DNA of 49,900 nt, from positions 1-49,900 of IMG/VR virus record IMGVR_UViG_3300042360_000665; one strand, given 5' to 3'. Both the position numbers and the translations under genes were made by a program. Source of the stretch: a virus (taxonomy: Duplodnaviria; Caudoviricetes). Position 1 is the stretch's first letter, and every line of letters starts with the position of its first letter. A model generated the notes under the pieces. It had not been told where the DNA came from. It was given only the letters and a program-made list of their open reading frames with translations, and did not search any database. Of this stretch, positions 7,652 to 31,506 are shown piece after piece.

Positions 7652-7672
7652 TTTGCCAGCTGGGAGGGAGCT

Positions 7673-8208: not shown

Positions 8209-8240
8209 GGCTGGGGTGGAGCGGAGAACACCGACCAGAC

Positions 8241-8317
8241 GCCCCGCAGGTGAGCACTGGCCAGGGGCGAGCAAAGCGAGCCTTGCGTCAGCCCTGGCCA
8301 GCGCGAGCCGTAGGGGC
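8241..8317 (-). promoter_or_regulatory. Hairpin element A (putative ssDNA/cruciform promoter)
   Basis: CTGGCCAGGG 8257-8266 pairs with CCCTGGCCAG 8292-8301; outer GCCCC/GGGGC; shared core GCGTCAGCCCT at 8285-8295. Confidence 0.55.
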
Positions 8318-8696
8318 ATGCTGCGGAGGGGTTTCGCTCCGCCCAGCCAGCCAGCCTCCAGTGGCAACGGTGCAAGTGCCGTGCTGCCATCCCACCGCGC
8401 CCGGTGAACAGAGGTGCTGGCTCTCCTGGGATCGAGGGCTGTCCCAGCTGCTCCCGTCAGATCTGATGCGGCCCGCCGCACAGCGGCACCCTGCTAGCCG
8501 GCTCTGCAGCACCCCGGCCACCGTTTGTCTGTGGCCTGGGTCATTGGTCCCGGTCTGGCTGGTGGCCGGGCAATCCCTGGTGGCGATCACCCTCCTGCGG
8601 CTGCCACAGCGTCTGGCCAGAGCCGCGGAGCCCGAGCAGGCGCGAGAGGCGGAGCGGCGCAGGCCGAAAGGGGGCCCAGGCCCCCCGCAGCATCCA

Positions 8697-9035
8697 TCAG
8701 ACGACCGGCATGCACCTACTGCACTGCAGCCCACCCCGCCGCAACGCGGCTTCTGCCTCCACCTGCTGGCGGTAGCTCAGCTGGGCTTCTGCTTCTAGGG
8801 CGCTATCGATCTCATCCACCCGCGCCAGGCACAGCTGAATCGCTGGCAGCACCTCTTCCTCCAGCCGGGAGATCTCCTCTTCTCCATAGGGCCGATCAAT
8901 CCAGGTGCGCCGCAGCGGCCGGCCGGCATGACCCCGCAGGATTGATTCGATGGCTTTGCCGCAGGACTCCAGCAGCAGGAACGGATCCTCCTCAGGCCTG
9001 CAGAACGGAGAAGCGGCAGATGAGAGCGTGGCCAT
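8697..9035 (-). CDS. Hypothetical protein (112 aa)
   Basis: MATLSSAASPFCRPEEDPFLLLES...; protein-like composition; GC hairpin CGGGCCTC/GAGGCCCG upstream. Confidence 0.6.
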   Translation of the reverse strand: MATLSSAASPFCRPEEDPFLLLESCGKAIESILRGHAGRPLRRTWIDRPYGEEEISRLEEEVLPAIQLCLARVDEIDSALEAEAQLSYRQQVEAEAALRRGGLQCSRCMPVV

Positions 9036-9150
9036 GGTGATCGGCGCCAAGAGCGGCGCAGCGACGGGACCGATCCCAGCAGAGGCGCGGCCGCAGGACG
9101 GGCCTCAGACTGGAGAGGCCCGGAGCAAGCCCCCCGCTCGCTCCCAGTCG

Positions 9151-9417
9151 TTACCGGTCCATGCGCGTCAGCGCTGCTCCGCCCAGCAGCGCCAGCAGCA
9201 GCTTGAGGGTGGAATCAAAGCCGCCCTGCAGCTGCTCCAGCGTGCCGGGGCAGATCTGCCCGATCGATCGCCCCTCCAACGCCCGCTGCCCGCAGACCCC
9301 GGCAGCAAGGGAATAGATCAGCAGCTGGGTGCCGATCACCACCGCCAGGATCTTGAAGACGAACCGCTCGCGGTCGAACGGCGGCTTGGGCGGTCGGGCC
9401 AGTGGGCCTGAGTCCAT
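9151..9417 (-). CDS. Small membrane protein, holin candidate
   Basis: Two hydrophobic segments; directly downstream of the YkuD-like gene. Confidence 0.5.
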   Translation of the reverse strand: MDSGPLARPPKPPFDRERFVFKILAVVIGTQLLIYSLAAGVCGQRALEGRSIGQICPGTLEQLQGGFDSTLKLLLALLGGAALTRMDR

Positions 9418-9471
9418 CGCTGCTCTTCCCTCGCGATCAGGCCCCAGCCGTTGGCAGCACCAGCCCCGCCG

Positions 9472-10215
9472 TCACTTTTTTTCCTGGAACACCCCCAGAT
9501 ACACCGTGCCCTGGCGGTAGAGGGGCAGCACCTTGTCGCGCAGATCGGCGTTGTACAGGCGCACGCAACCGAGGGTGGGGTGCAGGGGCTGCTGAGCAGC
9601 CCAAGCGCCGGGCCAGCCGCAGGCCGATCCACCGCCGTGGAGCATGATCCCGGCCCGGCCAACGGCCACCTCTTGGCCCTCCAGCTCCTCCATGTCGAAG
9701 GAATACCAGCCGTAGGCCATGGCGGTGTCGCTGCAGGGCGGGTTGGGGTTCTGCTCGTAGTCCGCGTAGAGCTGGCCGAGCCGGTAGAGCCCAGGCGGCG
9801 TATCGGTGCTGGTCTGGGTCCAGTCGGTATCGGCGCCTTGGCCGCGGGCCAGGCAGGGGATCTTCCAGAGGAACTGGCCGCTGTGGTCGTAGGCCTCCAT
9901 GTCCTGGTCGCGGTCATTCACCAGCAGGTAGGTGTCGCCGGGCTGGACAGGGGCAGCCTTTTGGGGGCCGGCCATGCCGGCCTCTTCTGATCCGCGGGGA
10001 TCGAGGCCGCCGCTGGGGCCTGCTGGTGCCGGGGGCGCAGCGGGTTTCTGGCTAAAGGTGAGCGCCCAGGGGGCCTGCTCATCGAGGACGGCCTCGCTGC
10101 CGGGCAGGGCCTTGATCGCGGCATGGAGGGTCCAGACGCCGGAAACCTGCTGGGGTTCACCGCGAAAGGCTTCAAAGCGGTCCTGGAACCGCTCGGGGGT
10201 CATCGGGCTGGCCAT
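9472..10215 (-). CDS. L,D-transpeptidase (YkuD)-like peptidoglycan enzyme, endolysin candidate
   Basis: DTPPGLY, GIMLHGGGS...PTLGCVRL (His/Cys catalytic motif). Confidence 0.75.
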   Translation of the reverse strand: MASPMTPERFQDRFEAFRGEPQQVSGVWTLHAAIKALPGSEAVLDEQAPWALTFSQKPAAPPAPAGPSGGLDPRGSEEAGMAGPQKAAPVQPGDTYLLVNDRDQDMEAYDHSGQFLWKIPCLARGQGADTDWTQTSTDTPPGLYRLGQLYADYEQNPNPPCSDTAMAYGWYSFDMEELEGQEVAVGRAGIMLHGGGSACGWPGAWAAQQPLHPTLGCVRLYNADLRDKVLPLYRQGTVYLGVFQEKK

Positions 10216-10311
10216 GGGCGTTGTGCTGCTGAGCCCTGTTGCCAGTGCTGACTTGGGGCCGCCGGCTGCGGGCACAAAGAGAGCGCCCCAGCTGCAGCCG
10301 GGGCCGCCCCC

Positions 10312-10512
10312 TCAGAAGGGCAGCTCGCTCTCGGGGCACCAGACCGGCACCGAAGCTGGCGTGGCCACCTGGCGCTCAAAGAGCAGATCAGCGCAGAGCT
10401 GCTCCAGCCGCTCCAGAGGAGCCGGACGGTGGGCCGAGGCCTCTTCCCAGAGCAGCTCCAGGGTGCGGGAGCTCAGGAGCCGGAAGGCGCGGGTGCGGGA
10501 TGCGGAAGCCAT
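10312..10512 (-). CDS. 66-aa hypothetical protein (hairpin cassette B)
   Basis: MASASRTRAFRLL...WCPESELPF; downstream of hairpin B with the shared leader motif. Confidence 0.55.
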   Translation of the reverse strand: MASASRTRAFRLLSSRTLELLWEEASAHRPAPLERLEQLCADLLFERQVATPASVPVWCPESELPF

Positions 10513-10541
10513 GGCAGGCGTAGCGGAGACCCCGAAGCAGG

Positions 10542-10639
10542 CCGGGCGGGGTCAAGGGGCAGCCCCCTCTGCAATGCGGAGCGCAGCGCAGCCAACGCAC
10601 CAGTCCGGCTGACTCGCGTCAGCCCTTGAGGCCGCCCGG
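10542..10639 (-). promoter_or_regulatory. Hairpin element B (putative ssDNA/cruciform promoter)
   Basis: CCGGGCGG..TCAAGGG 10542-10558 pairs with CCCTTGA..CCGCCCGG 10623-10639; GACTCGCGTCAGCCCTTG at 10611-10628 is identical to 31469-31486. Confidence 0.6.
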
Positions 10640-10774
10640 ACCATGAGGAGGGCTGCGCGTAGCCGATCCACCAGGAGCTGGGCCACCACGGTTCTGTCTC
10701 CTCGGTGGTTTGGGGCGTGGGTCACCTGGCAACAGCTGCTGTTGTCACTGGGGCGAGGCCCCGGGAGCGTGCCC

Positions 10775-11683
10775 TTGGGCCTGACCTTGATCGAGGCGCA
10801 GAAATACGCCCGCCGCGCCGAACAGCTGGCGGTGCTTAAGACCTTCGCGGAGGGGGAGCTGCTGCGCCGCCTGCCCTTCCGCAACCTCGTGGGCGGCTCG
10901 CTGAGCTTCCCTGCCGAAACGAAACTCCCCCGCGTGGGTTTTCGGGCCGTCAATGAGGGCTACCGCCAGAGCTATGGGGTGATCAACTCCGATTCGGAGT
11001 TCGTGCACCTGTTCGGCGGTGACCTGGATGTGGACCGCTCGATCGTGGACCTGCAGGGCCCCGAGGCCCGTGCTGCCCAGACCGAGATGAAGGTGCGCTC
11101 CATGCGGCTCACGCTGGAGGCCGCGATCATCAACGGCGATGACACCTTCGATCCGCGGGCGTTCAACGGGCTGAGCAAGCGCCTTGTGCCGGGTGAGGAC
11201 CAGACGATCGACAACGGCGGCAGCACGCTCAACCTGCTGGCGCTGGAGGCGCTGACCGACAGCGTGATCGGCTACGGCGGCGACAAGGTGCTGATCGCCA
11301 GCAAGGCGGCCCGCCGCCAGATCAGCACCGCCTCCCGCCAGGCCGGCGGCGACCTCTACGAGGTGATCGACGGGCGGCACTATTTCGAGGGGATCGAGAT
11401 CCTGCTGGTGGAGGAGGACGCCGAGGGCAACGCGGTGCTCGGCTACGACGAACCGGGAGACACCACCTCGATCTACTGCTGCGTACTGGGCGATGCGGCG
11501 GTGTGCGGCCTGCAGGGGCCGTTCGAGGGGCGCTACGGGATCTCGGTGCGGGACTTCGGGGAGGTGCACGACGCTCCGGTGTTCCGCACGCGGGTGGATT
11601 GGTACGTGGGCTTTGCCGTGTGCAACCGCAAGGCCGCCGCACGCCTGTTCAACGTCGCCCCGATGCCGCTGGTGCTGCACTGA
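10775..11683 (+). CDS. Major capsid protein (HK97 fold)
   Basis: MGLTLIEAQK...LPF..., LPRVGFRAVNEGY, GGDLDVDRSIV, INGD...FNGL..R, RVDWYVGFAV...AAARL; TTG start 7 nt after GGAG. Confidence 0.85.
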   Translation: MGLTLIEAQKYARRAEQLAVLKTFAEGELLRRLPFRNLVGGSLSFPAETKLPRVGFRAVNEGYRQSYGVINSDSEFVHLFGGDLDVDRSIVDLQGPEARAAQTEMKVRSMRLTLEAAIINGDDTFDPRAFNGLSKRLVPGEDQTIDNGGSTLNLLALEALTDSVIGYGGDKVLIASKAARRQISTASRQAGGDLYEVIDGRHYFEGIEILLVEEDAEGNAVLGYDEPGDTTSIYCCVLGDAAVCGLQGPFEGRYGISVRDFGEVHDAPVFRTRVDWYVGFAVCNRKAAARLFNVAPMPLVLH

Positions 11684-11762
11684 GCGGCGTTTGATCGGCT
11701 CCGCAAGACCCTGGCGGCACAACAGATCTTTTCCCCCTGTTCTTTGTTCTGGAGACCCTTCC

Positions 11763-12197
11763 ATGACCTCTCAAGCCACCCGGCTGCTCGATGCACAAAC
11801 CGTGCTCGTCGGCTGGATCAACCACTCCGCCACTGACTGCTACGAGCACACCCGCAGCAGCGGTGATGTCGTCAACCTCGGCACCGATCTCGATGCCACC
11901 AGCTCCTTTGTGCTGGTGGCTTCCCACCCCGGCCATAGCGGGGCGGTGACGGTGACCCTGGAGCTGGCGCCGCTGCTGGCCGATGGCAACGCCGGCAGCT
12001 GGATCACCGCCGCGGCCGTCGCCATCCCCGCCGCAGGCGGCAAGGTCGAGGCGATCATCAGCGGCGCCGCCCTGCTGATCAACCCGGCTGACAGCGCACT
12101 GATCACGCCGCCCTGCCTGCGGCTGGCGCGGGCGACGGTTTCGCCTGGCACGCCTGCCGGGATGACCGTGGCGCTCACCGCCAACCAGGGGCTGTGA
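11763..12197 (+). CDS. Putative capsid decoration/cement protein
   Basis: 144-aa beta-rich protein immediately after the capsid gene. Confidence 0.5.
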   Translation: MTSQATRLLDAQTVLVGWINHSATDCYEHTRSSGDVVNLGTDLDATSSFVLVASHPGHSGAVTVTLELAPLLADGNAGSWITAAAVAIPAAGGKVEAIISGAALLINPADSALITPPCLRLARATVSPGTPAGMTVALTANQGL

Positions 12198-12207
12198 GGT
12201 GAGCGCC

Positions 12208-12915
12208 ATGGGCAACCCACTCGACACCCTCAACGTGGCGGCCGGAGCTGAGGCCCTGCCGCTGGAGCTGCTGCAGCCTCTCGACAGCAGCAACCCCGCC
12301 TCCACGCCTGTTCGCCTCTCGGGCCCGGAGCAGCGGCTCAACGTCACACCGGATCCAGGTGTAGGCGATGCAGCGCTGCTGCCGCCCAGCCAGCTGCTGA
12401 TCGGCAAGGACAGTGCGACCCGCTCGATCTGGCCGGTGCACCTGGCCGGCTGGCAGGCCCTGGGCTGGCAGTTGCTCAGCCCAGCCAGTGGCGGCGATGA
12501 GCCGGTCCCGGTGGACTCCGGGGACAACGCGCCGGAACCGGAGCTGGCGGATGCGCTGGACCTCGAGCCCGAGCAACCGGAAGCGCCGGAACCCGCCCCG
12601 GCAGCAGATGAGCCCGCCCCCACCGGTGAGCCGCTGGAGTCAGCGGCAACCACCACCAGCGACGGAGAAGCCCTGCTGGCCACTGAGCCAACCGACTTCC
12701 AGTCCATGACCAAGGCCCAGATAGTCGAGTTCTGCTCCAGCGTCTATGGCGTGGAGCTCGATAGCAGCCAGACCAAGGCCGAACTGGTGGAGCAGGCCAC
12801 GGCACTGGAGACCCAGGCCAGCGGCAGCAGTACAGCCACCAGCGAGGGCAATGCTGTTGCCAGCAGCGACCCTGCTGATCTCGCGGCCCTGGAGCTGGGT
12901 GATGCCCTGCTCTGA
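12208..12915 (+). CDS. Acidic protein with C-terminal HeH/LEM/Rho-N-like motif
   Basis: DFQSMTKAQIVEFCSSVYGVELDSSQTKAELVEQ; head-module position. Confidence 0.55.
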   Translation: MGNPLDTLNVAAGAEALPLELLQPLDSSNPASTPVRLSGPEQRLNVTPDPGVGDAALLPPSQLLIGKDSATRSIWPVHLAGWQALGWQLLSPASGGDEPVPVDSGDNAPEPELADALDLEPEQPEAPEPAPAADEPAPTGEPLESAATTTSDGEALLATEPTDFQSMTKAQIVEFCSSVYGVELDSSQTKAELVEQATALETQASGSSTATSEGNAVASSDPADLAALELGDALL

Positions 12916-12992
12916 TCACGGCCAACTGCAACCGAGCCAACGCATTCCTGGCTGGGGGCTGGCAACAGCTCAGCAGCACTGCCCTGGCGCCG

Positions 12993-13235
12993 ATGGCCAT
13001 TCCCGATCCGGCTGTGCTGGCCGAGCTGACAGCCCAGTGCCGCAGCAGCAGTCGGCCCCAGGGGGTGATCTTCCTTGGCCAGGCCCAGCTGCAGGACGGC
13101 GGCACCCCTGAACCGCCCCCCGCCGGGAGCGTCAGTTCGGTGGAAGCCCTGGCCCCGCTGGTGAGTGCTGCCGCCAGCAATGGAGTGGTGGTGCTCACGC
13201 TGGACTTGCGCCTGCTCAGCCCCCTACCGCCCTGA
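12993..13235 (+). CDS. Hypothetical protein (80 aa), probably virion-associated
   Basis: ATG ORF in the structural operon; its end (LDLRLLSPLP) resembles that of the next protein (LDLSTLPALP). Confidence 0.5.
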   Translation: MAIPDPAVLAELTAQCRSSSRPQGVIFLGQAQLQDGGTPEPPPAGSVSSVEALAPLVSAAASNGVVVLTLDLRLLSPLPP

Positions 13236-13278
13236 CGCCACCCCTGATCTCCCCAACCCCTTTTACTTGCTGATCGCT

Positions 13279-13956
13279 ATGGCCACCACCACCGAGAGCC
13301 CCACCACCAGCCGCTCCTTGCCCCAGCCCAGCGACCTGCTGCTGGTGCAGCGCGGCAGCACGCCCTACCGGGCCACGGCTGATGAGGTCAAGGCGTTCAT
13401 GCTCGCCCCCGCCACTGCGGTAGCGATCGGTGCGATCAAGCCCGGCACGAACCTCTCGGTCGATGCCGATGGCACCCTCCATGCCGCAATCTCCGGTGCC
13501 CTCACCTACCGAGGTGCGATCGACCCCACCACCAGCGAGGCTCCGGATGGCTCTGCAGTCGGGGATGTGTACTTGGCCAGTGCTGGCGGTCTTGCCCTGG
13601 CCAGCTGGCAAGGCCTTGCTGGTGAGCAGATCGCCCAGGGGGACCTGCTGCTGTTTGACGGGGAGGAATGGAGCGCCAACGCGGCCCTGGGCCCCGATGG
13701 CGCCGGAGTGATCCGCATCCAGGTGGCCGCACCGCTGGTCGTCGATGAAAGCGACCCGGCTCAACCGCTGCTGAGGGTCGAGCCTGCAACCACCGCCGCT
13801 GCCGGCGTGGTGCAGCTGGCCAACCCGTTGGCGCTGGCGGACGGCACACCCGGGCGGGTGGTGGACGCGGCCCAGCTACAGGCAGCGCTGGCCACCGCCC
13901 AGCCGGCTGGTGACTACATGCCGCTGGATCTCAGCACCCTGCCGGCCCTGCCCTGA
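13279..13956 (+). CDS. Fibre-like structural protein
   Basis: ATAVAIGAIKPGTNLSVDADGTL and ATTAAAGVVQLA fibre-type repeats. Confidence 0.6.
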   Translation: MATTTESPTTSRSLPQPSDLLLVQRGSTPYRATADEVKAFMLAPATAVAIGAIKPGTNLSVDADGTLHAAISGALTYRGAIDPTTSEAPDGSAVGDVYLASAGGLALASWQGLAGEQIAQGDLLLFDGEEWSANAALGPDGAGVIRIQVAAPLVVDESDPAQPLLRVEPATTAAAGVVQLANPLALADGTPGRVVDAAQLQAALATAQPAGDYMPLDLSTLPALP

Positions 13957-13967
13957 GCGCCGAACTG

Positions 13968-15017
13968 ATGACGCTTCAAGCAAGCGACCTGCTGGCGATT
14001 ACCCGCCCCGCTGGGCCCCAGGCCGGCACCTATCAGCTGCCGGCGGCAGCACTGGCGGAACTGCTGAACCCGCCGCCAGTGCTGGGTATCAGCGGGGTGC
14101 TCTGGTCAACCGTGCGCTCAGCGGCGGATAACAGCTGGCAGGCGATCTGCTGGTCGCCGGAGCTGCAGCTCTACGCCTGCGTTGCGGGCAGCGGCACGGG
14201 CAACCGGGTTATGACCTCAAGCGATGGCATCCGCTGGAGTGCCCAACCATCAGCAGCCGATCAGAACTGGGTGGCGCTCTGCTGGGCCAAAGAGCTGGGG
14301 CTGTTCGTGGCCGTCAGCGACAGCGGCATTGGGAATCGGGTGATGACCTCACCGGATGGCCGCAGCTGGACCCTGCGCCAGACGCCGGCCAACAACAACT
14401 GGACCGCGCTCTGCTGGGCATCCGAGCTGGGCCTACTGGTGGCGGTCGCCAGCAGTGGCACGGGCAACCGGGTGATGACCAGTTCCGATGGCTTCACCTG
14501 GACGGCCCGCCAGGCTGCTGCAGATCAGGAGTGGCGCTCCATCTGCTGGGCGCCGCAGCTGGGGCTGCTGGTGGCGGTGAGCAGCAACGGCGGCAACCAG
14601 CGGGTGATGACCTCAAGCGATGGCCGCAACTGGACGCTGCGGACGGCCGCCTCCAACAACAACTGGGGTGCGCTCTGCTGGGCAGCGGAGCTCGGCCTGC
14701 TGGTGGCCTTGAGCAGCAGCGGTCGGGGCAACCGGGTGATGACCTCTACTGACGGGATCAGCTGGAGCAGCCGCAGCTCGGCGGCCGACAACGCCTGGAC
14801 CTCCCTCTGCTGGTCGCCGCAGCGGGAGCTGTTGGTGGCGGTGAGTAGCAGCGGCACCGGCAACCGGATCATGACCAGCGCCGATGGCCTCAGCTGGATG
14901 GTGCGCAGCTCTCCAGCTGATCTGGGTTGGCGCTCGCTTTGCTGGTCGCCCCAGCGGCGTCAGTTTGTGGCTGTGAGCAACAGCGGCGCTGGCAACCGGG
15001 TGATGGTGAGCCCCTGA
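13968..15017 (+). CDS. Seven-repeat beta-propeller (BNR/Asp-box-like) protein, receptor-binding candidate
   Basis: Seven ~44-aa repeats W...AADxxWxALCWxxELGLLVAVSSSGxGNRVMTSxDG. Confidence 0.75.
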   Translation: MTLQASDLLAITRPAGPQAGTYQLPAAALAELLNPPPVLGISGVLWSTVRSAADNSWQAICWSPELQLYACVAGSGTGNRVMTSSDGIRWSAQPSAADQNWVALCWAKELGLFVAVSDSGIGNRVMTSPDGRSWTLRQTPANNNWTALCWASELGLLVAVASSGTGNRVMTSSDGFTWTARQAAADQEWRSICWAPQLGLLVAVSSNGGNQRVMTSSDGRNWTLRTAASNNNWGALCWAAELGLLVALSSSGRGNRVMTSTDGISWSSRSSAADNAWTSLCWSPQRELLVAVSSSGTGNRIMTSADGLSWMVRSSPADLGWRSLCWSPQRRQFVAVSNSGAGNRVMVSP

Positions 15018-15020
15018 ACC

Positions 15021-15215
15021 ATGACTGACACCAAGGCACCCCTCCAGGCGATTGGCTCGCGTTGCTGGCGCGACCTGATCAGCCCAGAGAGCGGCGCCAC
15101 CGTGCTCAACCTGGCGGGAGACAGCAGTGCCGCCGACCCGATGGTGGAGCTGGCTTACGACGAGGGGGGCAGCGGTTGGTGGCCGCTCTCCACGCTGGTG
15201 TTTGAGCAGCCATGA
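15021..15215 (+). CDS. Hypothetical protein (64 aa)
   Basis: ATG 3 nt after the previous stop; last gene of the operon. Confidence 0.55.
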   Translation: MTDTKAPLQAIGSRCWRDLISPESGATVLNLAGDSSAADPMVELAYDEGGSGWWPLSTLVFEQP

Positions 15216-15227
15216 GCCAAGGGGGCT

Positions 15228-15815
15228 TCACCCCCCTCCCACCAGCTGCTGGCGCAGAGCCTCAAGCGCTTTCTTCTGGGCCCGCTGCACCGACATGGCG
15301 CTGATTTGCAGCTGCTCCGCTGCAGCTCTCAGTGAGAGGCCCTCAAGGACGGTGAGCCTCAGGGCCGTGGCTTGAGCTGCAGGCAGCTGATCTACTAGCT
15401 GCTCCAGCGCCAAATCATCAGCGGGCCCGGCTGCTTCTGGCTCGGGGCTGGCCAGCTGATCGAGCAGGCACGGCTCGCCAGCGCCGTGGCCATCAAGGCT
15501 GATGTGACCCAAAGGGCACTGACCCTGCTCATGCAGCCGGCGTGGGATGCGCACCAGCCGCACCCGATCGCGCAGGTGATGCTGCAGGGCACCTGAGATG
15601 CAGCGACGCAGATAGGGCTCGGCCGGCTCACCTGCTTTGCAGCGCAGCACTGAACGGAGCAGGGCTTCTCTAGCTACCTGGATCAGATCCTCCCGCTCGA
15701 CCAAAGGGAAGAAGCGGCGGGCTACAGCTGAGGCAACGGCATCAGCTAGCGGCAGGTGCTGGAGCACCAGGGCATCGCGGGCACGGAGGGCAGAGCGGGA
15801 AAGCGGGGCAGCCAT
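15228..15815 (-). CDS. Sigma-70 family factor, SigF-like (regions 2 and 4, region 3 shortened)
   Basis: RDALVLQHLPLA..EDLIQVAREAL..HHLRDRVRLVRIPR; region 4 HTH LEGLSLRAAAEQLQISAMSVQRAQKKAL. Confidence 0.85.
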   Translation of the reverse strand: MAAPLSRSALRARDALVLQHLPLADAVASAVARRFFPLVEREDLIQVAREALLRSVLRCKAGEPAEPYLRRCISGALQHHLRDRVRLVRIPRRLHEQGQCPLGHISLDGHGAGEPCLLDQLASPEPEAAGPADDLALEQLVDQLPAAQATALRLTVLEGLSLRAAAEQLQISAMSVQRAQKKALEALRQQLVGGG

Positions 15816-15825
15816 CTGGGGATGG

Positions 15826-15940
15826 CAGAGAACCCCACCCCCAACGGCCAGCCGCAGGGATGTGACAAGGACGCCCTAACGGGGCGCATGGCTAGATCCT
15901 TGACGCAGCGCGAGGACTGGACGAGGGATTCAGGTGGGTG
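15826..15940 (-). promoter_or_regulatory. Hairpin element D (diverged) upstream of the sigma gene
   Basis: CAAGGA 15866-15871 / TCCTTG 15897-15902 enclosing CGCCC-TAAC-GGGGCG; leader GGGGTTCTCTGC resembles those of elements A and B. Confidence 0.4.
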
Positions 15941-16081
15941 TTTGACGGCCAAGTGGCAAGCCGTTCCCCCGTATGCCGCAACAAAAGGCCACGCCAGAGG
16001 TCTACCTGCCGAGGTCCGCGATGCAGTAGCTAGGCCACGCTTAAGAAGGCTGCGATCGGTGCCTGGAGAATCAGGAGTTGC

Positions 16082-19356: not shown

Positions 19357-19427
19357 CAATAGATAGCGACGGAATCCGAGGGCCTCGTACGAGACAGGCC
19401 ATATCAGGGGGCTAGAAACAATCCTGG

Positions 19428-23533: not shown

Positions 23534-24638
23534 TGATCTTCTCCTCCGGCCAGCAGTAGCTCACCTTCAAGTGTTTGAAGTGGGTGTGAGGTAGCCAACC
23601 CTCATGCTGCATTCGGCCTACCACGATGCCTGGTGCAATGCCGAGGGCCTTGGCAGCCGCCTTCAACTCCTGTTCGGAGCGCAGCCCCTGCAGTTTCTGG
23701 GCTGCAGCAGACGGGATTAACTGATCAGCAGCGAAGCGATCGGCTTCGGCCTCATGCTCTTCATCCACACCATCGAGGCCATCCACAAAGGTGGCCTTCT
23801 TGCCGTGCTTGAGGATGTGGCCAGCCTCATGGAACAGCGTGAACCAGAGGTGATCGTTGGTTTTGTGCCGCAGGCTCAGGGCGATCAGGGCTCGATCCGG
23901 GCTCAGCCACTGGGTGGCCCCACTCACCCGGCAGCCCGGTGGGGCTGGCACGAACACCACCGCCACACCGGCAGCGCCGGTCAGGGCCTGCAGCTGCGGC
24001 ACAAACACCGTGGGATCCGCTTCGCAGCTGAGGGGGCGAATCTCTTGCAGCGCCGCTCGGAATGCCTTGGCTTCATAGGGTCTGCAGGTAATCGAGGCCG
24101 CTTGCGTTTCGGCGCGGCGCAGCCAACTGGCCAGGGCTCCTTGCTGCGTGGCATAGCTTTTGGAGGTGCGATACACGGCCAGGGGCTGGCCGTAGCGCTC
24201 CCGCCAGGCCTCGATCGACGCCACCGCGAAGAACTTCAGGCACGCCGAAACCTGTTGGCCGGCATGGCTGCACGTGACCACCCAGCCCTGGCCTTGCATC
24301 CAACGCAAGGGCAGTTCTTTCAGCCAGTCCTTTTGGCTGGCCAACTGATCGAGCTGTTGGAGGCGCACCAGATCCTGCTGGTAGTTGGCCTCCAGCCGCA
24401 GCCAGAAGCCGGCGTCATGGCCGAGCACCCGCTCCAGCCGTTCGGCCGTATCGGCCGTGATCGATGCTCGGCCCTTGAGCAGTTCATTCACATGCTTGGC
24501 GCTGAAATCCAGCCGCTGGGCCAGCTCGGCGCGGGTCCAGCCGTGCTCCTCAAGCACCTCCTCGATCAGATCCCCGGGGGGAGAGGCCCAGTCGGCGTTG
24601 AAGCTGGCGTTGGTGGTGGGGGTGGCGGTTTCAACCAT
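23526..24638 (-). CDS. higA: HigA-type XRE antitoxin fused to ImmA/IrrE (M78) metallopeptidase
   Basis: PPGDLIEEVL..GWTRAELAQRL..ITADTAERLE..FWLRLE; WFTLFHEAGH zincin motif. Confidence 0.85.
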   Translation of the reverse strand: MVETATPTTNASFNADWASPPGDLIEEVLEEHGWTRAELAQRLDFSAKHVNELLKGRASITADTAERLERVLGHDAGFWLRLEANYQQDLVRLQQLDQLASQKDWLKELPLRWMQGQGWVVTCSHAGQQVSACLKFFAVASIEAWRERYGQPLAVYRTSKSYATQQGALASWLRRAETQAASITCRPYEAKAFRAALQEIRPLSCEADPTVFVPQLQALTGAAGVAVVFVPAPPGCRVSGATQWLSPDRALIALSLRHKTNDHLWFTLFHEAGHILKHGKKATFVDGLDGVDEEHEAEADRFAADQLIPSAAAQKLQGLRSEQELKAAAKALGIAPGIVVGRMQHEGWLPHTHFKHLKVSYCWPEEKINE

Positions 24639-24960
24639 GGGTGTCTCCAATCTCCAGGAGGCGCACGCTGCTCACCTGCTGCCAGTCGATGCCGCCGGAG
24701 GGCAGGGTTGGCGGTGGCTGATCGGTGGGCTCGAACAGAAGGCGCATCGGGCCATCGAGGTCGACGGAGTATTGGCCGGAACGGTCTTCAGTGAGGGCGT
24801 GGGGACGACCAAGCTGAAGCTGGCTCAGGTTCTCCACGGCCCGCAGCTCGTTCAGGCGGGTCTTAAGACGTTTGGCGCGCTTTTCGCCGAGCTCTTTGCG
24901 CTGGTGCTTGTCCTGTTCGCAGAGGCGCTGGATTTTCTTGCTGGCGTAGGTGATCTGCAT
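24631..24960 (-). CDS. higB: HigB/RelE-like toxin
   Basis: RPHALTEDRSGQYSVDLDGPMRLLF...IGDTHG; toxin-first order, overlapping higA. Confidence 0.8.
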   Translation of the reverse strand: MQITYASKKIQRLCEQDKHQRKELGEKRAKRLKTRLNELRAVENLSQLQLGRPHALTEDRSGQYSVDLDGPMRLLFEPTDQPPPTLPSGGIDWQQVSSVRLLEIGDTHG

Positions 24961-24969
24961 CCTAAGCCA

Positions 24970-26508
24970 TCACTCTTGATTTTCCTTCACCGAATCAGTT
25001 AAGGAAACCTCAGCCACGAGCCCATCCAGCATGGCCACCACGCCGTCCATCTGTTGCCAGAACTCCTGCCCCGAGGCCTCCCAGGTCTCCCAAGCGTCCT
25101 GCAGGGTGGCTGGTTGTCCACCCCCTTCTCCTCCTGCAGCCGCCGCCGGCCGTTTCACGTAGAGCGGGATTGACAGGCTGAAGTCGTTCGCCGCAATCGC
25201 CTCCAGGCTGGCCACCGCCGCAAACCCCTCCTCATTGGCAAAGGCGCCGTAGGCCCCGGCAATGCGGGCTTGATGCTCAGGCCGCAGGAAGCTCATCGCC
25301 CGCTCCCGGGAAACCTCGTTCACGGCATCGATCAGCAGCACCTTGCCGCGGCGATCAACAGGCTTTCGGCTGCGGCAGAACACCACGCAGGCCTCCATCG
25401 GCGAGTTGTAAAACAGGCCTGCCCCCAACCCCAGCACGCAGTCCACCAGGTCGGCCTCCACGAGCTTGCGACGCAGCTCGGACTCCTCCTTGCGGAACAG
25501 CACCCCATGCGGAAACAGGACCGCGCAACGGCCTGTCGTTGGATCCATGCTGCGCAGGATGTGTTGAAAGAAGGCGTAGTCAGCCCTGCCCTGGGGCGGG
25601 GTGCCGAGGAAGTTGCGTCCCCAGGGATCGCTCTGCCAGGCCTCCCGGTTCCATTGCTTGATCGAATAGGGCGGGTTGGCAAGCACCACATCGAAGCTGC
25701 GAAGTGCATCGTGTTCGCTGAAACCGGGCGCCGCCAAGGTGTCGCCGCGGGCGATCTCGCTGTCCTCCACGCCGTGCAGCACCAGGTTCATGCGGGCGAT
25801 CGAGGCCGTCATGTGGTTCCGCTCCTGGCCGTAGAGCTGCAGGGTGCGGTGCTCGCCGCCCTTGCGCTTCACCTCAGCCAGGGCCGAGATGAGCATGCCG
25901 CCGGTGCCACAGGTGGGGTCGTAGATGCGATCACCGGGCTGCGGGTCCAGCATCTGCACCATCAGGTGCACCAAGGTGCGGTTGGTATAGAACTCCTGCG
26001 CCGTGTGGCCGCTGTCGTCGGCGAACTTCTTGATCAGAAACTCGTAGCCATTGCCAAGTTCGTCCTCCGGCACATGGAACAGAGATAGGGATTGGCTGGA
26101 GAAGTGCTCCAGCAGGTTCTTGAGGGTTTCATCGGGGAGGCGCTCCTTGTTGGTCCAGGGCGCATCGCCGAAAATGCCATCGAGCTTGCCCGGGTTGGCG
26201 GCCTCGATCGAACGCATGGCGTTCTGGAGGGCTCGACCTACGTCCTTCGCTACGGCCCGCACATCCGACCAGTGGGCCCCGGGCGGGATCACGAAGCGGT
26301 CGTTGGCGGTGGCCTGCGCGTAGGCGGTATCGCCCTCTGATTCATGCATCGCATCGGAATAGTCCTCGTCCCACACATCAGAGAGGCGCTTGTAGAACAG
26401 CAGCGGGAACACGAACTGCTTGTAGTCGCCGGCATCCACCAGGCCGCGCAGCTGTACAGCGGCTGCCCAGAGGTAGGACTCGAGGTCGGATTGAGTGAGT
26501 GTTGTCAT
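24970..26508 (-). CDS. hsdM: Type I MTase subunit M2, NPPY type (predicted m4C)
   Basis: LESYLWAAA, EFYT, YDPTCGTGGML, VLANPPYS. Confidence 0.92.
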   Translation of the reverse strand: MTTLTQSDLESYLWAAAVQLRGLVDAGDYKQFVFPLLFYKRLSDVWDEDYSDAMHESEGDTAYAQATANDRFVIPPGAHWSDVRAVAKDVGRALQNAMRSIEAANPGKLDGIFGDAPWTNKERLPDETLKNLLEHFSSQSLSLFHVPEDELGNGYEFLIKKFADDSGHTAQEFYTNRTLVHLMVQMLDPQPGDRIYDPTCGTGGMLISALAEVKRKGGEHRTLQLYGQERNHMTASIARMNLVLHGVEDSEIARGDTLAAPGFSEHDALRSFDVVLANPPYSIKQWNREAWQSDPWGRNFLGTPPQGRADYAFFQHILRSMDPTTGRCAVLFPHGVLFRKEESELRRKLVEADLVDCVLGLGAGLFYNSPMEACVVFCRSRKPVDRRGKVLLIDAVNEVSRERAMSFLRPEHQARIAGAYGAFANEEGFAAVASLEAIAANDFSLSIPLYVKRPAAAAGGEGGGQPATLQDAWETWEASGQEFWQQMDGVVAMLDGLVAEVSLTDSVKENQE

Positions 26509-26981
26509 TAGGATGGCTCTTCAGCGGGCTTTCTTCTGATCTTCATTCGAGCCATCAGATTGACCTCATATCTTGCGGCGAAGCTGGTTACTTCGGCCGT
26601 CGCATTGAGGATGACAGCGATTTCCTCTGTCGCACGTTCACGACTCAGAGTGGCGCGTTTTCCGTGGATGATCTCGTTACGCGTCTGAAATACCTTTTTG
26701 ACTGCATCCCAGTCACTAACAGCATCGCGCAAGCCTGGCTTGCCAGCAGCCCCCACCAAGGCTTTCCAGCCATCCTCATAAGCGCCAATTGACTTGTACT
26801 TCTTCTCAATCGTTTCTCGCGCTTCTTTTGTTGGCCCCGATGAAAGTGCAACAATTGCCCGTCGGATTGTGCGCTCAAGATCGGCCGCAGCAAGAATAAA
26901 TGCTATGGCGGGTTCTCCCTCGTCGATCGAGCGCTGAATCCTGGCTTGTCGGTTCTCAAGTGAATCGGAAACCCGAAACAT
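26508..26981 (-). CDS. HEPN-domain protein
   Basis: Rx4H motif RNEIIH in a helical 157-aa protein; TGATG/TAATG coupling to both hsdM genes; GGAGG RBS. Confidence 0.6.
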   Translation of the reverse strand: MFRVSDSLENRQARIQRSIDEGEPAIAFILAAADLERTIRRAIVALSSGPTKEARETIEKKYKSIGAYEDGWKALVGAAGKPGLRDAVSDWDAVKKVFQTRNEIIHGKRATLSRERATEEIAVILNATAEVTSFAARYEVNLMARMKIRRKPAEEPS

Positions 26982-28735
26982 CAGATCCATCCTCCTTCCA
27001 CCATCACCGTGCGGAGGTGATCTTCGGCTTCCCGGCACTTCGCTAGGGCGTCCTTGAACGCCGCCACCGCTTCCGGTAGGGGCGGGATGTCAGCCCCGAT
27101 TGGGGGCAGCACGTAGCGGGAGATGTTCAATGTCCAGCTCTCCTGCTCGATTTCTTCGAGGCCCACCACGCGAGCTCGATCTTCCACGTCTTCAAACGCC
27201 GAGACCCAGCCGTGAATCTGGGAGGCGTGCTCAGGCTCCAGGAAGTTCTGCGCCCGCCCGCGGCGAAACAGGCTGGAGGCATCGATCACGATCACCTTTC
27301 CCTGACGGGCAGTGGCTTTGTGGCGCCGAAGCACCAACACACAAGCCGCCAGCCCGGTGCCATAGAAGAGGTTGGGCGCGAGACCAATAACCGCCTCCAC
27401 CAGGTCTGCCTTGAGCAGGTGCTGGCGGATTTGACCCTCCACGCCACTGCGGAACAGGGCGCCCTGGGGCAGCACAACGGCCATCCTTCCGGTGCCCGGA
27501 GCCATCGAGGACACCATGTGCTGAACCCAGGCCATGTCGGCGTTGCTGTCCGTCGGAAGACCAGCGAAGGCCCTGCCCCAGGGATCGCTCTCCCAGAGCT
27601 CACGGCCCCAGGCCTCCAGCGAAAACGGCGGATTGGCGATCACCACATCAAAGGTGCCCAGGCCACCGGTGGAGGCGTCTGCAAACACGGGGTTTCGCAG
27701 GGTGTCGCCCCGCTCAATCACGAAGTCCTCCAGTCCATGGAGGAAGAGGTTCATCCGCGCCACGGAGGCAGTGGTGAGGTTTTTCTCCTGGCCAAAAATC
27801 TTGCCAAAGAAGGTGCGTGGATCCCCCCCACGGGCATGAACGTGCTCAACGGCAGCCAGCAACATGCCGCCGGTGCCACAGGCAGGGTCGTAGACCGTTT
27901 CCCCCTCCTGCGGATCCACGATGTCCACCATCAGGCGAACAACGCTGCGCGGGGTATAGAACTCACCGGCCTTCTTGTTCGTGGCATCGGCGAACTGCTT
28001 GATGAGGTACTCGTAGGCGTCACCCATCACGTCGGAGGCGACCGATGCGTTGCCGATCAACAGCGAAGAGAAGTGTTCGATCAGGTCCTTGAGCAGCTCA
28101 TCGGGCAGCCGATCCTTGTTGGTCCACTGGGCATCGCCAAAGACGCCATAGAGGTGCTTCTGGTTCGCCGCTTCCACGGCGCGCATGGCGTTCGAGAGGG
28201 CTGTGCCGACGTTTTTGGGTGTAGCCCGAACATCGTTCCAGTGGGCACCCTCGGGCAACTGGAATCGGTGTTGATCGGCAAAGTCCTCGCCGTACTCGGC
28301 GAGCATCGCCGCGTTCTCCTCGTCCCACTGATCGCAGATCCGCTTAAAGAACAGCAGCGGCAAGATGTACGACTTCCAATCGGTGCGATCGACTGGGCTG
28401 CCGCGGAGGATGTTGGCGGCTTCCCAGAGATGGGATTCCAGCTGGGGGAGCGTTAGCGGCCCGCCGGGGCTGCTTGCAGTCGCTGCCGCAGGCTTCGTCT
28501 GAACCTGATTGCTGCCAGCAGCTCTCAGACCTCCACCAGGCCCCTTAACTTTTTCAGCCAGACCCATAGCCACCACAGCGTCCTTAGCAGCGTTGAACTG
28601 CTCATCGCTTAGGGCAATTTCAAGCTCGCTATCGATGGCGGTCCGCAATTCGAGGTTGGCAAGGCGTGAGCCATCCTCTGGGATGAGAGCAATCATCGCG
28701 TCGGTGACGTCCCGGTTCAACGGCGGCGTCGTCAT
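26981..28735 (-). CDS. hsdM: Type I MTase subunit M1, NPPF type (predicted m6A), with N-terminal extension
   Basis: LESHLWEAANILRG, GEFYTPRSV, YDPACGTGGML, VIANPPFS. Confidence 0.93.
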   Translation of the reverse strand: MTTPPLNRDVTDAMIALIPEDGSRLANLELRTAIDSELEIALSDEQFNAAKDAVVAMGLAEKVKGPGGGLRAAGSNQVQTKPAAATASSPGGPLTLPQLESHLWEAANILRGSPVDRTDWKSYILPLLFFKRICDQWDEENAAMLAEYGEDFADQHRFQLPEGAHWNDVRATPKNVGTALSNAMRAVEAANQKHLYGVFGDAQWTNKDRLPDELLKDLIEHFSSLLIGNASVASDVMGDAYEYLIKQFADATNKKAGEFYTPRSVVRLMVDIVDPQEGETVYDPACGTGGMLLAAVEHVHARGGDPRTFFGKIFGQEKNLTTASVARMNLFLHGLEDFVIERGDTLRNPVFADASTGGLGTFDVVIANPPFSLEAWGRELWESDPWGRAFAGLPTDSNADMAWVQHMVSSMAPGTGRMAVVLPQGALFRSGVEGQIRQHLLKADLVEAVIGLAPNLFYGTGLAACVLVLRRHKATARQGKVIVIDASSLFRRGRAQNFLEPEHASQIHGWVSAFEDVEDRARVVGLEEIEQESWTLNISRYVLPPIGADIPPLPEAVAAFKDALAKCREAEDHLRTVMVEGGWI

Positions 28736-30582
28736 GAAGACACCTCCTCGCCGCTGTTGACCAACATTGGAGGTAAATCCTCCATCCAGCCTCGCCGCGA
28801 GAGCTGCTGGAGCCGGCGGCTGAGTTCTTCGACCTCACGGCTCAAGGCCACACTCTCCTGTTCCAGGCTCTCGGCTCGCTGGAGCTCGCTAGAGCTCGGA
28901 ATCACGACGGGCAAGCCCTTCACTTCGCCCATCGGCACGAAGGACACTGCCGCTCCCTGACCGGCCTTGTTCAACAGGGTCTGCCCCACGGCACTGCGGA
29001 GATACTGCACCAGAGCGGCTGGGGTGAGAGGGGCGTTCGGCCTGAGTCGGACCACGCAAAACGCCTGGCCAGGCACCGTGGGTTGCTCAAGGTCCTGAAC
29101 CACCGACACCTTGCCGAGACCACCTTTGATCGACAACAGCACATCTCCCCGCTCCAGCAAATGCTGGCGGCCCTTGGCCAAGGCGGCTTCCGGCAACCGG
29201 ATCAACTTGGAGCCTTGAAGGAGCTGGCCGGAGTCGTCGATGTCGCCCGGGGTAACCTCCCGCACCTCGATGCCTTCATCCTCTTGACGGCCAAGGGAGG
29301 CGACTGGTCGCCTGATCTCGGCCAGATCACCCAGTTGCACCGTTGACCTTGAGTCCAGGTAGCGCTGAAGCACCAAGTCGTCTTCTGAATGGAGGTAGCG
29401 GCTCACCTGGAAACTGAAGCCATTCGCCTCTAGTTCCTGGGCCGGGATCAGACGGGCATAAGAGCTATCTCTCCTGTGGTTCAGGAGTTGGGTGAGTTCT
29501 TTGACCCCGTTCGTATCCCAGAGCTGTTTTGAGCTTTTTCCCTTTTTCTGGATTAGCAGCTCCTGGGCGGCAACCATCTGAATGGGATCGCCAACAGCGC
29601 GATCCTTCTTCAGGACTAACAACAATCCCTCGAGGTTAGTTGCTGAATTTCCACCTGAAGGCAGGGCAATCACGGCATCTAGCCAATTTTTTTGCACCAG
29701 CTCCTCACGGAAGTACTCCAGATCTTTGGATGTCCGAGCAGCAATTCCTGGAGACATCAAGGCGTAGGTAGTGCCACTGCAGCGCTGATGGGCAGCAAAC
29801 ACCCTTCGTGCCTCGCTGTCTTTGATTGCGGAGGGGCAGTCGAGAGGGAATGGCGGGAGCCAGGGATCGTCGATCAGTAGTTCGCGGGTTCTCTCTCCCC
29901 AGGGTGGGGCCACGATGGCAACAGGCCATTGGGCCTGATCAGCAATGGACTTCGGTTTCACCTCTAGTGGATAGAGGCTGAGCAATCCCAGAACCCAGCG
30001 TGCCTGCGAAGGATTTGCCGAACTCAGCAGAAGTGGATGCTCCATTCCCAGGAAAGGGGCTGCTGCCACTCCCATTGGGAAGAGGCAGGCCACTTGATCC
30101 CCAGGGTGAAAGGCCAGCAGGGCTTCCCAGAAGCCGCCCATAGAGGCAGAGCATCCCAGCTCTCCACCACTTCGGTTGCTGGCTTTTAGCTCCGACATCG
30201 CTTCGATCACGGCCTTGCATTGCAAGGGATCGCCACTATTCACAGCTCTGCCGACTGGCAATAGGGAAGCCCTAAGGCGCTCGAGCAATTTGGGGTCAAG
30301 GTGCCTCATTGCTGCTGAGGAAGAAAGAGTCAGTCCAGAACGCTCAGCAATGGCTTCTTGGATGGCGCCCCATACGTCTTCGTTGGTGAGGCTGCGCATG
30401 GCATCGAAGTAGCCAACCGGAACTCCATCGGAGGTTGGAATCCAACGTGCCCAGAGGAGTACATCCAGTACGACTTCCAGTCCCTGATCAGCAGGAAGCG
30501 AGCCCCGTAGCTCATCGCAGGCGTTCCAAATCAGCTTTTCAACGTCAGTGCGGTTCATATCAATGGAAATCTTGGTAGCCAT
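28732..30582 (-). CDS. Degenerate HsdM-like MTase fused to a single HsdS-like TRD
   Basis: IWNACDELRG N-terminus, LDAVIALP, FQVSRY; motif IV is APPW and the SAM motif is degenerate; C-terminal LGDLAEI...GDVLLSIKG..GKV...LPVVIP. Confidence 0.75.
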   Translation of the reverse strand: MATKISIDMNRTDVEKLIWNACDELRGSLPADQGLEVVLDVLLWARWIPTSDGVPVGYFDAMRSLTNEDVWGAIQEAIAERSGLTLSSSAAMRHLDPKLLERLRASLLPVGRAVNSGDPLQCKAVIEAMSELKASNRSGGELGCSASMGGFWEALLAFHPGDQVACLFPMGVAAAPFLGMEHPLLLSSANPSQARWVLGLLSLYPLEVKPKSIADQAQWPVAIVAPPWGERTRELLIDDPWLPPFPLDCPSAIKDSEARRVFAAHQRCSGTTYALMSPGIAARTSKDLEYFREELVQKNWLDAVIALPSGGNSATNLEGLLLVLKKDRAVGDPIQMVAAQELLIQKKGKSSKQLWDTNGVKELTQLLNHRRDSSYARLIPAQELEANGFSFQVSRYLHSEDDLVLQRYLDSRSTVQLGDLAEIRRPVASLGRQEDEGIEVREVTPGDIDDSGQLLQGSKLIRLPEAALAKGRQHLLERGDVLLSIKGGLGKVSVVQDLEQPTVPGQAFCVVRLRPNAPLTPAALVQYLRSAVGQTLLNKAGQGAAVSFVPMGEVKGLPVVIPSSSELQRAESLEQESVALSREVEELSRRLQQLSRRGWMEDLPPMLVNSGEEVSS

Positions 30583-30842
30583 CAGTAGCGGTTGAAGCTG
30601 TCGAAGTCGTAGGCAGTGACCAAGGTGCCGCCGCACTCGACGACGATCACGCCCCCTTTGTCCATCGCCCTGATCAGCTCCTTCCGTTCGCGATCAAGGG
30701 CGTCAAGGACGGAGCGGATCTGCTTACGGCCCAGAACGAGCTTGTCTCCATGCGAGATGCCGTGCTGCTGCGCGAGCTCAACCGTGGCTTCGCGGATGCC
30801 TCGTTGAGATATCCGCGCTCCGTAGTGCTTGGTCTTGGCCAT
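30582..30842 (-). CDS. Small DUF4258-like (BECR/RelE-fold) protein
   Basis: TKHYGARISQRGI...VIVV..GTLVTAY; TGATG-coupled to the MTase-TRD gene. Confidence 0.6.
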   Translation of the reverse strand: MAKTKHYGARISQRGIREATVELAQQHGISHGDKLVLGRKQIRSVLDALDRERKELIRAMDKGGVIVVECGGTLVTAYDFDSFNRY

Positions 30843-31177
30843 GACCCTCCTGGGGTTGATGCGCAAAGCATGGCAGCATCCGAATGGCTTGTCAAGAGCA
30901 AAAGGTAATGTCAGAAACTGACAAGCCGCAGACTCTTTATTTAGGGCGCTCGGGCCGGCCCATGGAGGGCCTGGCGGTCTAGATGCCAAGCGGCAAGGTT
31001 TTTTCCACTAGCGCAGATGCCACTGGCACACCGTGCTGCATGGCGAGAAGCGTCAGCGCCGCTGGATGCAGTGGTTCCAGCCGGTGTACGTGGGGCTCAG
31101 CAGCGCAGATTGACCAGGGCGCGAACAACTCCCCGCCGGAGAAAGCCGGAGGCGGGGCCGCCCCCGGCCAGGGGAGC

Positions 31178-31390
31178 TCAGAGCACCCGCACCTCGGCCT
31201 GAGGCCCGAGCACCCGCTGCTGATTGGAGGCCAGGATCAGGGCCTCATCGCGGGGCACGTAGTGCGGCTCGGCCGAGATGTGCCCCTCGCGATCGAGGAA
31301 GAGCACCCGCAGGAGCTCACCGGCAGCCCCGAGGAGATGCACCGAGATGATGCGGATCGGGCATGTGCGGCTGAGAGGGGTGGCGGCCAT
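31178..31390 (-). CDS. 70-aa hypothetical protein (hairpin cassette C), probable paralogue of 7990-8208
   Basis: MAATPLSRTCPIRIISVH...VLFLDREG...VPRDEALILASNQQ. Confidence 0.65.
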   Translation of the reverse strand: MAATPLSRTCPIRIISVHLLGAAGELLRVLFLDREGHISAEPHYVPRDEALILASNQQRVLGPQAEVRVL

Positions 31391-31420
31391 GGCTGGGCTG
31401 GCGAACGACACCGCCGTCAA

Positions 31421-31506
31421 GCCCCGGCGCCGCCAGCGCCGCGCAAGGGGCGCGAAGCGCAGCGCAGCGACTCGCGTCAGCCCTTGCGCGGTGCGCAAGC
31501 CGGGGC
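31421..31506 (-). promoter_or_regulatory. Hairpin element C (putative ssDNA/cruciform promoter)
   Basis: CCGCGCAAGGG 31439-31449 / CCCTTGCGCGG 31481-31491; outer GCCCCGGC/GCCGGGGC; TTGACG on the minus strand at the stem base. Confidence 0.6.

Follow-up and report, generated by a model that had tools for sequence, protein, structure and literature searches.

Template-strand hairpins before small genes of a picocyanobacterial integrative element form a conserved family with features of single-stranded DNA promoters

IMG/VR record IMGVR_UViG_3300042360_000665 (positions 1 to 49,900, referred to here in its entirety as the window) is a contig in circular form whose terminal repeat measures 99 nt. 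It represents a 49.8-kb integrative element whose host lineage consists of Cyanobium/Synechococcus relatives, which are freshwater picocyanobacteria. A first-pass annotation had described dispersed hairpins heading single-gene cassettes and had read them as promoters that work on single-stranded DNA (ssDNA). The window carries five such hairpins, each bigger than first reported. They are described here on the plus strand, the template strand of the minus-strand genes that follow them. Four of the cassettes sit reversed inside a plus-strand head module (52..15017) that encodes TerL, a sigma-like protein, the portal, a LysM protein, the scaffold, the major capsid protein and a propeller-like repeat protein.

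Positions within the hairpins were numbered by setting the last pair of stem P2 to -12. Hairpin A (8218..8344) has its predicted +1 template C at 8229 and its -12 pair at 8241:8317, with a -35-like TGGCCA at 8295-8300, a 16-nt spacer and a -10-like CATGCT at 8317-8322. It is followed by gene A (7990..8208, minus strand), which encodes a 72-aa protein of no known family with 127 homologues at E<=0.001, all of them picocyanobacterial where a source name is given. The predicted structure of protein A is a confident small alpha/beta model (pLDDT 86) with no significant match among viral folds. An atlas lead to PsiB (0.78) was dropped for want of support in profile comparison (probability 0.8%). 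Hairpin E (~9056-9126; +1 template C 9070; -12 pair 9082:9106) is a newly found short form with a -10-like CAGACT at 9106-9111, no -35 and a downstream duplex in which tandem G.A pairs are possible; it precedes gene E (8697..9035, minus strand; 112 aa). Hairpin B (10518..10660; +1 template C 10530; -12 pair 10542:10639) belongs to a short-spacer class. Its -10-like box is GACCAT (10639-10644), and its TTG lies 10 nt from the -10, so there is no properly spaced -35. Gene B (10312..10512, minus strand; 66 aa, 102 homologues) is followed on the same strand by a YkuD transpeptidase gene and an 88-aa membrane open reading frame (ORF), with which it possibly forms an operon.

Hairpin D (15822..15945, or 15813-15945 in a wider delimitation; +1 template C 15833; -12 pair 15845:15923) represents a GGATC-junction class, with a -35 TTGACG at 15900-15905, a 17-nt spacer and a -10-like GAGGGA that has its T at -6 rather than -7. 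The gene behind it (15228..15815, minus strand) encodes a 195-aa sigma-70-family factor of the SigB/F/G-like type with regions 2 and 4. Hairpin C (31398..31527; +1 template C 31409; -12 pair 31421:31506) has a -35-like TTGCGC at 31484-31489, a 16-nt spacer and a -10-like CAGGCC without T-7, and heads gene C (31178..31390, minus strand), which encodes a 70-aa weak paralogue of A (26% identity). No known family was matched by genes A, B, C and E. Where homologues of the small genes come from named records, most of these carry the label Cyanobium, Synechococcus or Vulcanococcus.

The motifs named in the first-pass annotation were all present where it had placed them, and the 18-mer said to be common to B and C was found at 10611 and 31469. 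The sequence GCGTCAGCCCT occurs exactly at 8285, 10616 and 31474, always on the plus strand. With the propeller repeat, the hsdM pair and the terminal repeat removed, the only other exact repeat of at least 18 nt is at 36764/36997, and any such repeat arose in 2/30 order-3 Markov simulations. Searched alone with two mismatches, the 11-mer GCGTCAGCCCT was not above chance (32 matches vs 36 expected), and the annotation's literal pattern, tried on viral contigs, gave mostly chance matches (4/118 loci were homologues by eye). The minus-strand ORFs reported about 30 nt downstream are those of 72, 66 and 70 aa, whose starts lie 30-33 nt from the ends first given. For A, B and C these ends are exactly the two partners of the -12 pair; the elements themselves continue for about 25 nt on each side, through a bubble and then a downstream duplex. 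The weaker copy noted before the sigma gene, hairpin D, is a true member with a different junction. The layout of AGGGGC followed by GCGTCAGCCCT is present and yet not the core of the element, as many relatives have lost the top and kept the fork and bubble.

To examine conservation of the fold, we drew on 182 loci that carry a relative of gene A and obtained 136 distinct upstream regions from them. An alignment of 27 divergent members (A3), C and D included, revealed a common order on the plus strand. The start-codon complement comes first, then the downstream duplex P1, an AC that never varies, a gap of 11 nt and stem P2; internal loops and stem P3 (CAAGGG/CCCTTG) lead to a branched top, from which P3' and P2' return, and the order ends with A-nnn-T, a run rich in G and P1'. 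Both sides change in 16/21 named pairs of A3, and none of 500 shuffles reached any of the measures. Pairing was 82% in the true register compared to 36-56% in slid registers, a comparison biased in favour of the fold, which was derived from the same sequences. In the short-spacer class (A5; 18 sequences, with B, ardC and others), 7/15 pairs covary. The earlier observation that the arms differ yet stay complementary holds across relatives, many of which have the top deleted and P2, the bubble and P1 kept. A GC-GTCA-GC junction loop competes with the long stem for one base, and the exact fold is ambiguous there. Folding z-scores of single copies as DNA were modest (A -0.4, B -0.75), and the case thus rests on comparison. 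Collectively, these results show that the hairpin family is real and conserved.

In each plus-strand fold, the stem closes at a C:G or G:C pair, beyond which the far arm has an A at -11, usually a T at -7, and then a discriminator-like run rich in G. Opposite this -10-like box the near arm does not match, and its AC lies exactly 11 nt from the stem, followed by the second duplex and the start codon of the minus-strand gene. A-11 is present in 25/27 sequences of A3 and T-7 in 18/27, with A-11 never facing a T; both are invariant (18/18) in A5. C+1 and A+2 are invariant in the A3 template, and the near arm from -3 to -11 is variable and carries little information. To avoid circularity, the register was also set from nothing but pairing probability in a non-redundant set of 107 regions, drawn from 8 gene families. 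In the 76 regions retained, A-11 was found in 66, T-7 in 53 and G-6 in 56, and A-11 lay opposite a T in 5. A-11 and T-7 are described as key determinants of fork-junction binding by sigma-70 (PMC3753650, accessible part). The A, C and D classes have a TTGCCR/TTGACG hexamer at a distance of 15-18 nt upstream. The spacing in the B class rules out a universal -35 box, and the -35 is therefore regarded as optional.

On the gene-facing strand no conserved -10 was found, and a scan for consensus sigma-70 promoters returned 0 sites. A looser scan for AC-N11-stem-AnnnT was discarded, since it had no power (43 and 45 matches vs 44-57 in shuffles) and missed A-D. The far arm by itself is promoter-like on the plus strand (TTGCCR-16/17-CAnnnT) and, for B, points into the capsid gene. 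The elements might act in double-stranded DNA (dsDNA), be it as weak promoters of the ordinary kind that point away from the small genes or as cruciforms extruded by supercoiling, as in phage N4, whose promoters are reported to use GC-GGA-GC hairpins on the template strand. We consider this a poor prospect: an outward promoter needs no covarying near arm, arms mismatched over about 12 nt would hinder extrusion, and ORF scans of the window found no RNA polymerase encoded by the element.

To determine on which strand and in which nucleic acid the fold is likely to act, we counted loops over 101 elements. The template strand had 101 occurrences of GC-GNA-GC and the sense strand 10; for GC-GNNA-GC the numbers were 40 and 10, mostly as GTCA, which is no RNA GNRA loop. 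The background in the whole window is 56 and 34 per 49.9 kb. RNA-type GNRA and UNCG loops had no template bias. According to the text available for PMC13037366, such DNA mini-hairpins are far less stable as RNA, are poor binders of SSB, the protein that binds single-stranded DNA, and are found at the G4 origin, ssiA and N4 promoters. Wobbles and G.A pairs also favour the plus strand, for example with G-T at one pair in 16/27 sequences.

Two RNA-based explanations were weighed against these data. In one, the elements would be structured 5' leaders, acting as attenuators or translational switches in a minus-strand mRNA whose promoter would lie upstream. An inverted repeat folds on either strand (A on the minus strand has a z-score of -3.05), the downstream duplex adjoins the start codon, and upstream repeats of the CUP/EGeR type regulate establishment genes of plasmids. 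Such leaders are nevertheless disfavoured and improbable: the wobbles, the G.A pairs and the 10-fold skew of the mini-hairpins point to the plus strand, A-11, T-7 and the spacing to +1 would have no role in a leader, and our scan found no consensus upstream promoter. In the other, the fold would be a plus-strand RNA, within or cut from the late head transcript, that mimics a promoter and binds RNA polymerase like 6S RNA, itself a long hairpin with a central bubble. Because the head operon is encoded on the plus strand, its transcription runs through four elements, and the plus-strand RNA fold of C is significant (z -3.8). This is slightly less probable again, as the loops are of the DNA types GNA and GTCA rather than GNRA or UNCG, no plus-strand terminator was found, and the fixed link to start codons on the other strand would be left unexplained. 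Rfam gave no match at the gathering score and only noise by E-value, with the 6S model unmatched.

We next considered how the family is distributed. Two models, R1 and R2, were built from the family, with A, C and D of the window helping to build R1. In the window R1 finds A, C, D and weakly B, and R2 finds B; E is missed by R1 and scores 11.7 bits with R2. Among 121 genomes of the family, 26 were matched by R1 and 35 by R2, and R2 matched 0/100 other genomes of a phylum sample under strict filters with 35 candidates scored per genome. All 119 R1 matches (80 loci) were on the strand of hairpin A. At loci with head genes, 376/376 cassette placements, which are redundant and to that extent weaken the count as independent evidence, were opposite the head genes (one mixed locus excluded). 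Cassettes exchange position and content between relatives. One gene-A cassette lies in a different integrative element with integrase-like, Xis-like and DnaG-type primase genes (L194:7740-20200), and the same hairpin family heads further families of no known function of 136, 174 and 50 aa (L207:10429, L216:261 and L395:1354-1503).

In relatives, ardC (Pfam ArdcN and MPTase) occurs in cassettes at several positions. The element was found upstream of 26/30 distinct ardC genes by a strict pattern and of the other 4 by eye, a count biased by the choice of loci near hairpins. ArdC is reported to be an ssDNA-binding anti-restriction protein of mobile elements (PMC6222260, in the part available). An anti-defence gene behind the hairpin is thus seen in relatives only, A, B, C and E of the window having no known family.

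The exchange of cassettes recalls attC sites, which are folded ssDNA, and the hairpins might be attC-like recombination sites for mobile single-gene cassettes. This is very improbable: the hairpin lies upstream of the gene rather than downstream, the alignments contain no RYYYAAC/GTTRRRY core, the integrase is of the tRNA-targeting type and lies beside a tRNA-Gly att site, and no relic sites were seen at cassette junctions. The hairpins might instead be mainly priming signals of the ssi/sso type, at which RNA polymerase makes a short primer for the second strand, with expression of the gene as a by-product. In favour of this, the copies lie along 23 kb of a single strand, mini-hairpins are reported to mark phage priming sites, and Frpo is described as both transcribing and priming (Masai and Arai 1997). 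A function mainly in priming is unlikely, though of the rival readings it is the least so. Every copy in the window and in the relatives inspected lies about 18-35 nt (up to about 41) before the start codon of one of 8 gene families, and the element encodes its own primase.

The closest parallels come from conjugative plasmids. Class 2 promoters precede klcA/ardA, with starts mapped in pESBL and homologues in F, as far as the accessible text of PMC12672017 describes them. When we folded the upstream region of F klcA, the far arm carried CCC-TTGCAT, 15 nt and TAAGAT; its A-11 was mismatched, and a GC-GAA-GC loop stood beside the -35, where the fold branches. The elements described here share with the class 2 promoters of F and pESBL a long template-strand hairpin that ends near the start codon and an anti-restriction gene downstream. 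They also share a far-arm -10 with A-11 mismatched and, in the members that have a -35, its place just past CCC (as CCCTTG), where the fold branches beside a GNA mini-hairpin. In contrast to class 2, they are shorter (70-150 nt), have a bubble of about 12 nt rather than 3, a C or G rather than T at -12 and an optional -35, and reside in an element without relaxase or type IV secretion system (T4SS). R1 and R2 gave no significant match on the F leading region (best 11.4 and 15.1 bits), and blastn of element A against plasmids returned three short matches at E 0.4. The elements may therefore work like class 2 promoters, yet homology is not established, as the models fail to detect the F promoters. 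By eye, several Frpo'/Frpo* candidates of Samuel et al. 2024 (PMC11541004, supplement 7) look alike.

Frpo1 and Frpo2 are reported to fold as ssDNA and to be needed if genes of the leading region are to be expressed early (PMC9849209, PMC11541004; accessible parts). The logic proposed here is the one described for Frpo1/Frpo2 of F and ssi1-3 of ColIb-P9, in the portions available: activity on ssDNA only, silence after second-strand synthesis, and the capacity to prime. Unlike the present elements, Frpo1 and Frpo2 are about 330 nt long, have no GC-GNA-GC or GC-GNNA-GC on either strand, and lie in conjugative leading regions. The early promoters of phage N4, the G4 origin and ssiA of RSF1010 are described as carrying the same GNA/GNNA mini-hairpin loops on the functional strand. 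These are read by phage RNA polymerase or primase, whereas the bases of the present elements fit recognition of the host sigma-70 type, and no RNA polymerase is encoded.

Five comparative results thus argue for the ssDNA-promoter reading of the first-pass annotation: stem covariation, a far-arm -10-like box with an unpaired A-11 at the fork and a fixed 11 nt to +1, DNA mini-hairpins confined to the template strand, the presence of an element ahead of ardC, and the same layout in the F klcA promoter. Judged from sequence, the five elements are probably promoters that exist only while the plus strand is ssDNA, and that would also provide RNA-primer sites for the second strand. Host RNA polymerase with the main sigma factor would bind the ready-made fork and bubble and capture A-11 and T-7. 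It would initiate with G opposite the conserved C (8229, 9070, 10530, 15833 and 31409) and copy the small gene with an 18-35-nt leader, with the GNA mini-hairpins keeping the fold free of SSB. As the gene-facing strand has no -10 box, the promoter would be silent in dsDNA and hence switched off when the second strand has been synthesised. The genes behind such promoters (ardC in relatives, those for the sigma factor and the small proteins of no known family) would act at establishment.

Several observations count against such promoters. The register test lost 31 of its 107 regions (6 without the AC and 25 with a weak helix), the window's A and B among them, and T-7 is absent from C and D of the window and from 23/76 of the regions retained. 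T-12A costs 170-260-fold in fork binding according to the part of PMC3753650 available, and -12 is C or G here. Members of the B/ardC class have their -35 at a spacing of 7-10 nt, and none is present in E and the short forms. Free energy favours the template strand in only 65/101 elements. Two loci without head genes (L378 and L354) have cassettes on both strands, and one partial match among 45 was on the opposite strand (L430). The terminase of the element is of the dsDNA type. At L378:10100-11060 and in L354, hairpin cassettes stand back to back on opposite strands beside Rad52/Gp157 genes; in L378 a RecQ-like helicase gene also adjoins a DprA-like gene.

The first-pass annotation had taken the element for a dsDNA phage. 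It is no ordinary one, as tail genes are not recognisable. Its genes encode TerL, portal, scaffold, major capsid, LysM and YkuD proteins and two sigma-like factors, together with integrase, Xis, SSB, helicase, primase, a Rad52-like protein, Gp157 and restriction cargo. No gene for a tail tube, tape measure or sheath was recognised in the head module, and no tail tube, tape measure, relaxase or T4SS among the 40 main ORFs of the window (22 proteins were scanned additionally). The same set of genes is present in G002, a complete provirus, and in the tandem copies on G003:C18, by scans of selected ORFs of no assigned function, and selected ORFs of relatives gave no relaxase or T4SS match. Throughout the family (window 52-15017; G002:C1; G003:C18) head and packaging genes occur without recognisable tail genes, and the capsid of the closest phages is at most 42% identical. 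Searches for TrwC, Relaxase and VirB4 domains put 0/5 host genomes (some incomplete) over the cut-off; other relaxase families and a bare origin of transfer were not searched. By these searches the elements lie outside a conjugative context, with no relaxase or T4SS match in the main ORFs of the window, the selected ORFs of relatives or the five hosts.

A single-stranded phase of the element would be required for the promoters to act, and its source may be one of several. One tentative possibility, drawn by analogy with RcGTA, is that DNA delivered by the capsid enters through the host ComEC channel. If the DNA end packaged last is the first to leave the capsid, and if ComEC takes a 3' end first, the plus strand would enter with each hairpin ahead of its gene, which would fit the orientation observed. 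ComEC is reported to import one strand (PMC8579336, available part). ComEC and DprA are each present in 5/5 hosts, which is weak support as both are also present in 10/14 controls. A second source, which we hold to be just as possible as the first, is a long-lived displaced or lagging plus strand in the element's own replication or induction; it fits the orientation equally well and explains ardC less well. Mobilisation in trans by a conjugative element is unlikely, and a source other than these three is somewhat less doubtful than that.

Comparison with other tail-less systems bears on these options. Like phage-inducible chromosomal islands that form capsids (cf-PICIs; 10.1101/2025.02.11.637232), as far as the accessible text describes them, the element is integrative and has its own capsid and packaging motor and no tail genes. 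Unlike cf-PICIs, elements of this family are 50-56 kb long and encode two sigma-like factors and LysM and YkuD proteins. The same source describes cf-PICIs as injecting DNA through borrowed tails, which would give ssDNA promoters no role at entry; a borrowed tail would here inject dsDNA and leave the hairpins to the replication model, to the disadvantage of entry as ssDNA. The gene transfer agents (GTAs) RcGTA and BaGTA are, in the part of PMC12378983 available, a precedent for capsid-delivered DNA that crosses the inner membrane via ComEC/ComF, with DprA. GTAs, unlike the present element, carry random short host DNA and do not spread themselves. It is conceivable, if rather doubtful, that a tail-less capsid-forming family enters by the natural-competence channel as one defined strand and uses bubble promoters for ArdC, the sigma factor and primers ahead of its conversion to dsDNA. 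If true, this would be a self-packaging virus-like element that infects by transformation and is widespread in freshwater picocyanobacteria.

In the literature searched, ssDNA promoters have been shown only in conjugative plasmids, and the open-licence literature contained no description of this hairpin family or of ssDNA promoters in a prophage-type element. A conserved family of this kind, in elements that have a motor for packaging dsDNA and lack both a tail and genes for conjugation, would imply a single-stranded stage not described for them, and opens a direct way to study the movement of tail-less elements. The predicted promoters are short, have many natural variants and exact predicted starts, and can be reduced to a fork and two bases, so that their rules are testable with plain oligonucleotides. 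The small genes of no known family behind the hairpins are candidates for new anti-defence or establishment proteins in cyanobacteria.

Further features of the element were noted. At 36880..38281 (plus strand), an attP-like fragment of a tRNA-Gly(CCC) precedes the gene for a tyrosine integrase; this tRNA piece matches the tRNA adjoining the integrated copy in G003, and the fragment is flanked by an exact 24-nt direct repeat (36764-36787 and 36997-37020). In G003 (G003:C18:85001-205000), two near-identical copies stand in tandem, 56 kb apart, at tRNA-Gly(CCC). One of the two SigB/F/G-like factors is encoded at 1830-2315 between terL and portal, with Pfam region 2 only, and the other at 15228-15815 behind hairpin D. 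The LysM protein (5465-6634, directly after the portal-linked ORF), the YkuD transpeptidase (9472-10275) and the seven-repeat propeller-like protein (13968-15017) are conserved with the head genes and may make contact with cells where a tail is lacking. With regard to a head-tail connector and adaptor as in cf-PICIs, neither ORF 4943 nor the LysM protein's N-terminal part had a family or PDB match. Exchangeable defence cargo occupies 16082-30636, with a McrBC-like pair, a HigBA-like pair and a type I restriction-modification system that has two HsdM-like genes and a third methylase-like gene. At this place relatives carry BREX, DUF499/DUF1156/SNF2 systems, and GmrSD or KAP NTPases. Directly past the primase gene, TGTAAC/GTTACA motifs are repeated at 47790-48090, and these repeats are likely the replication origin.

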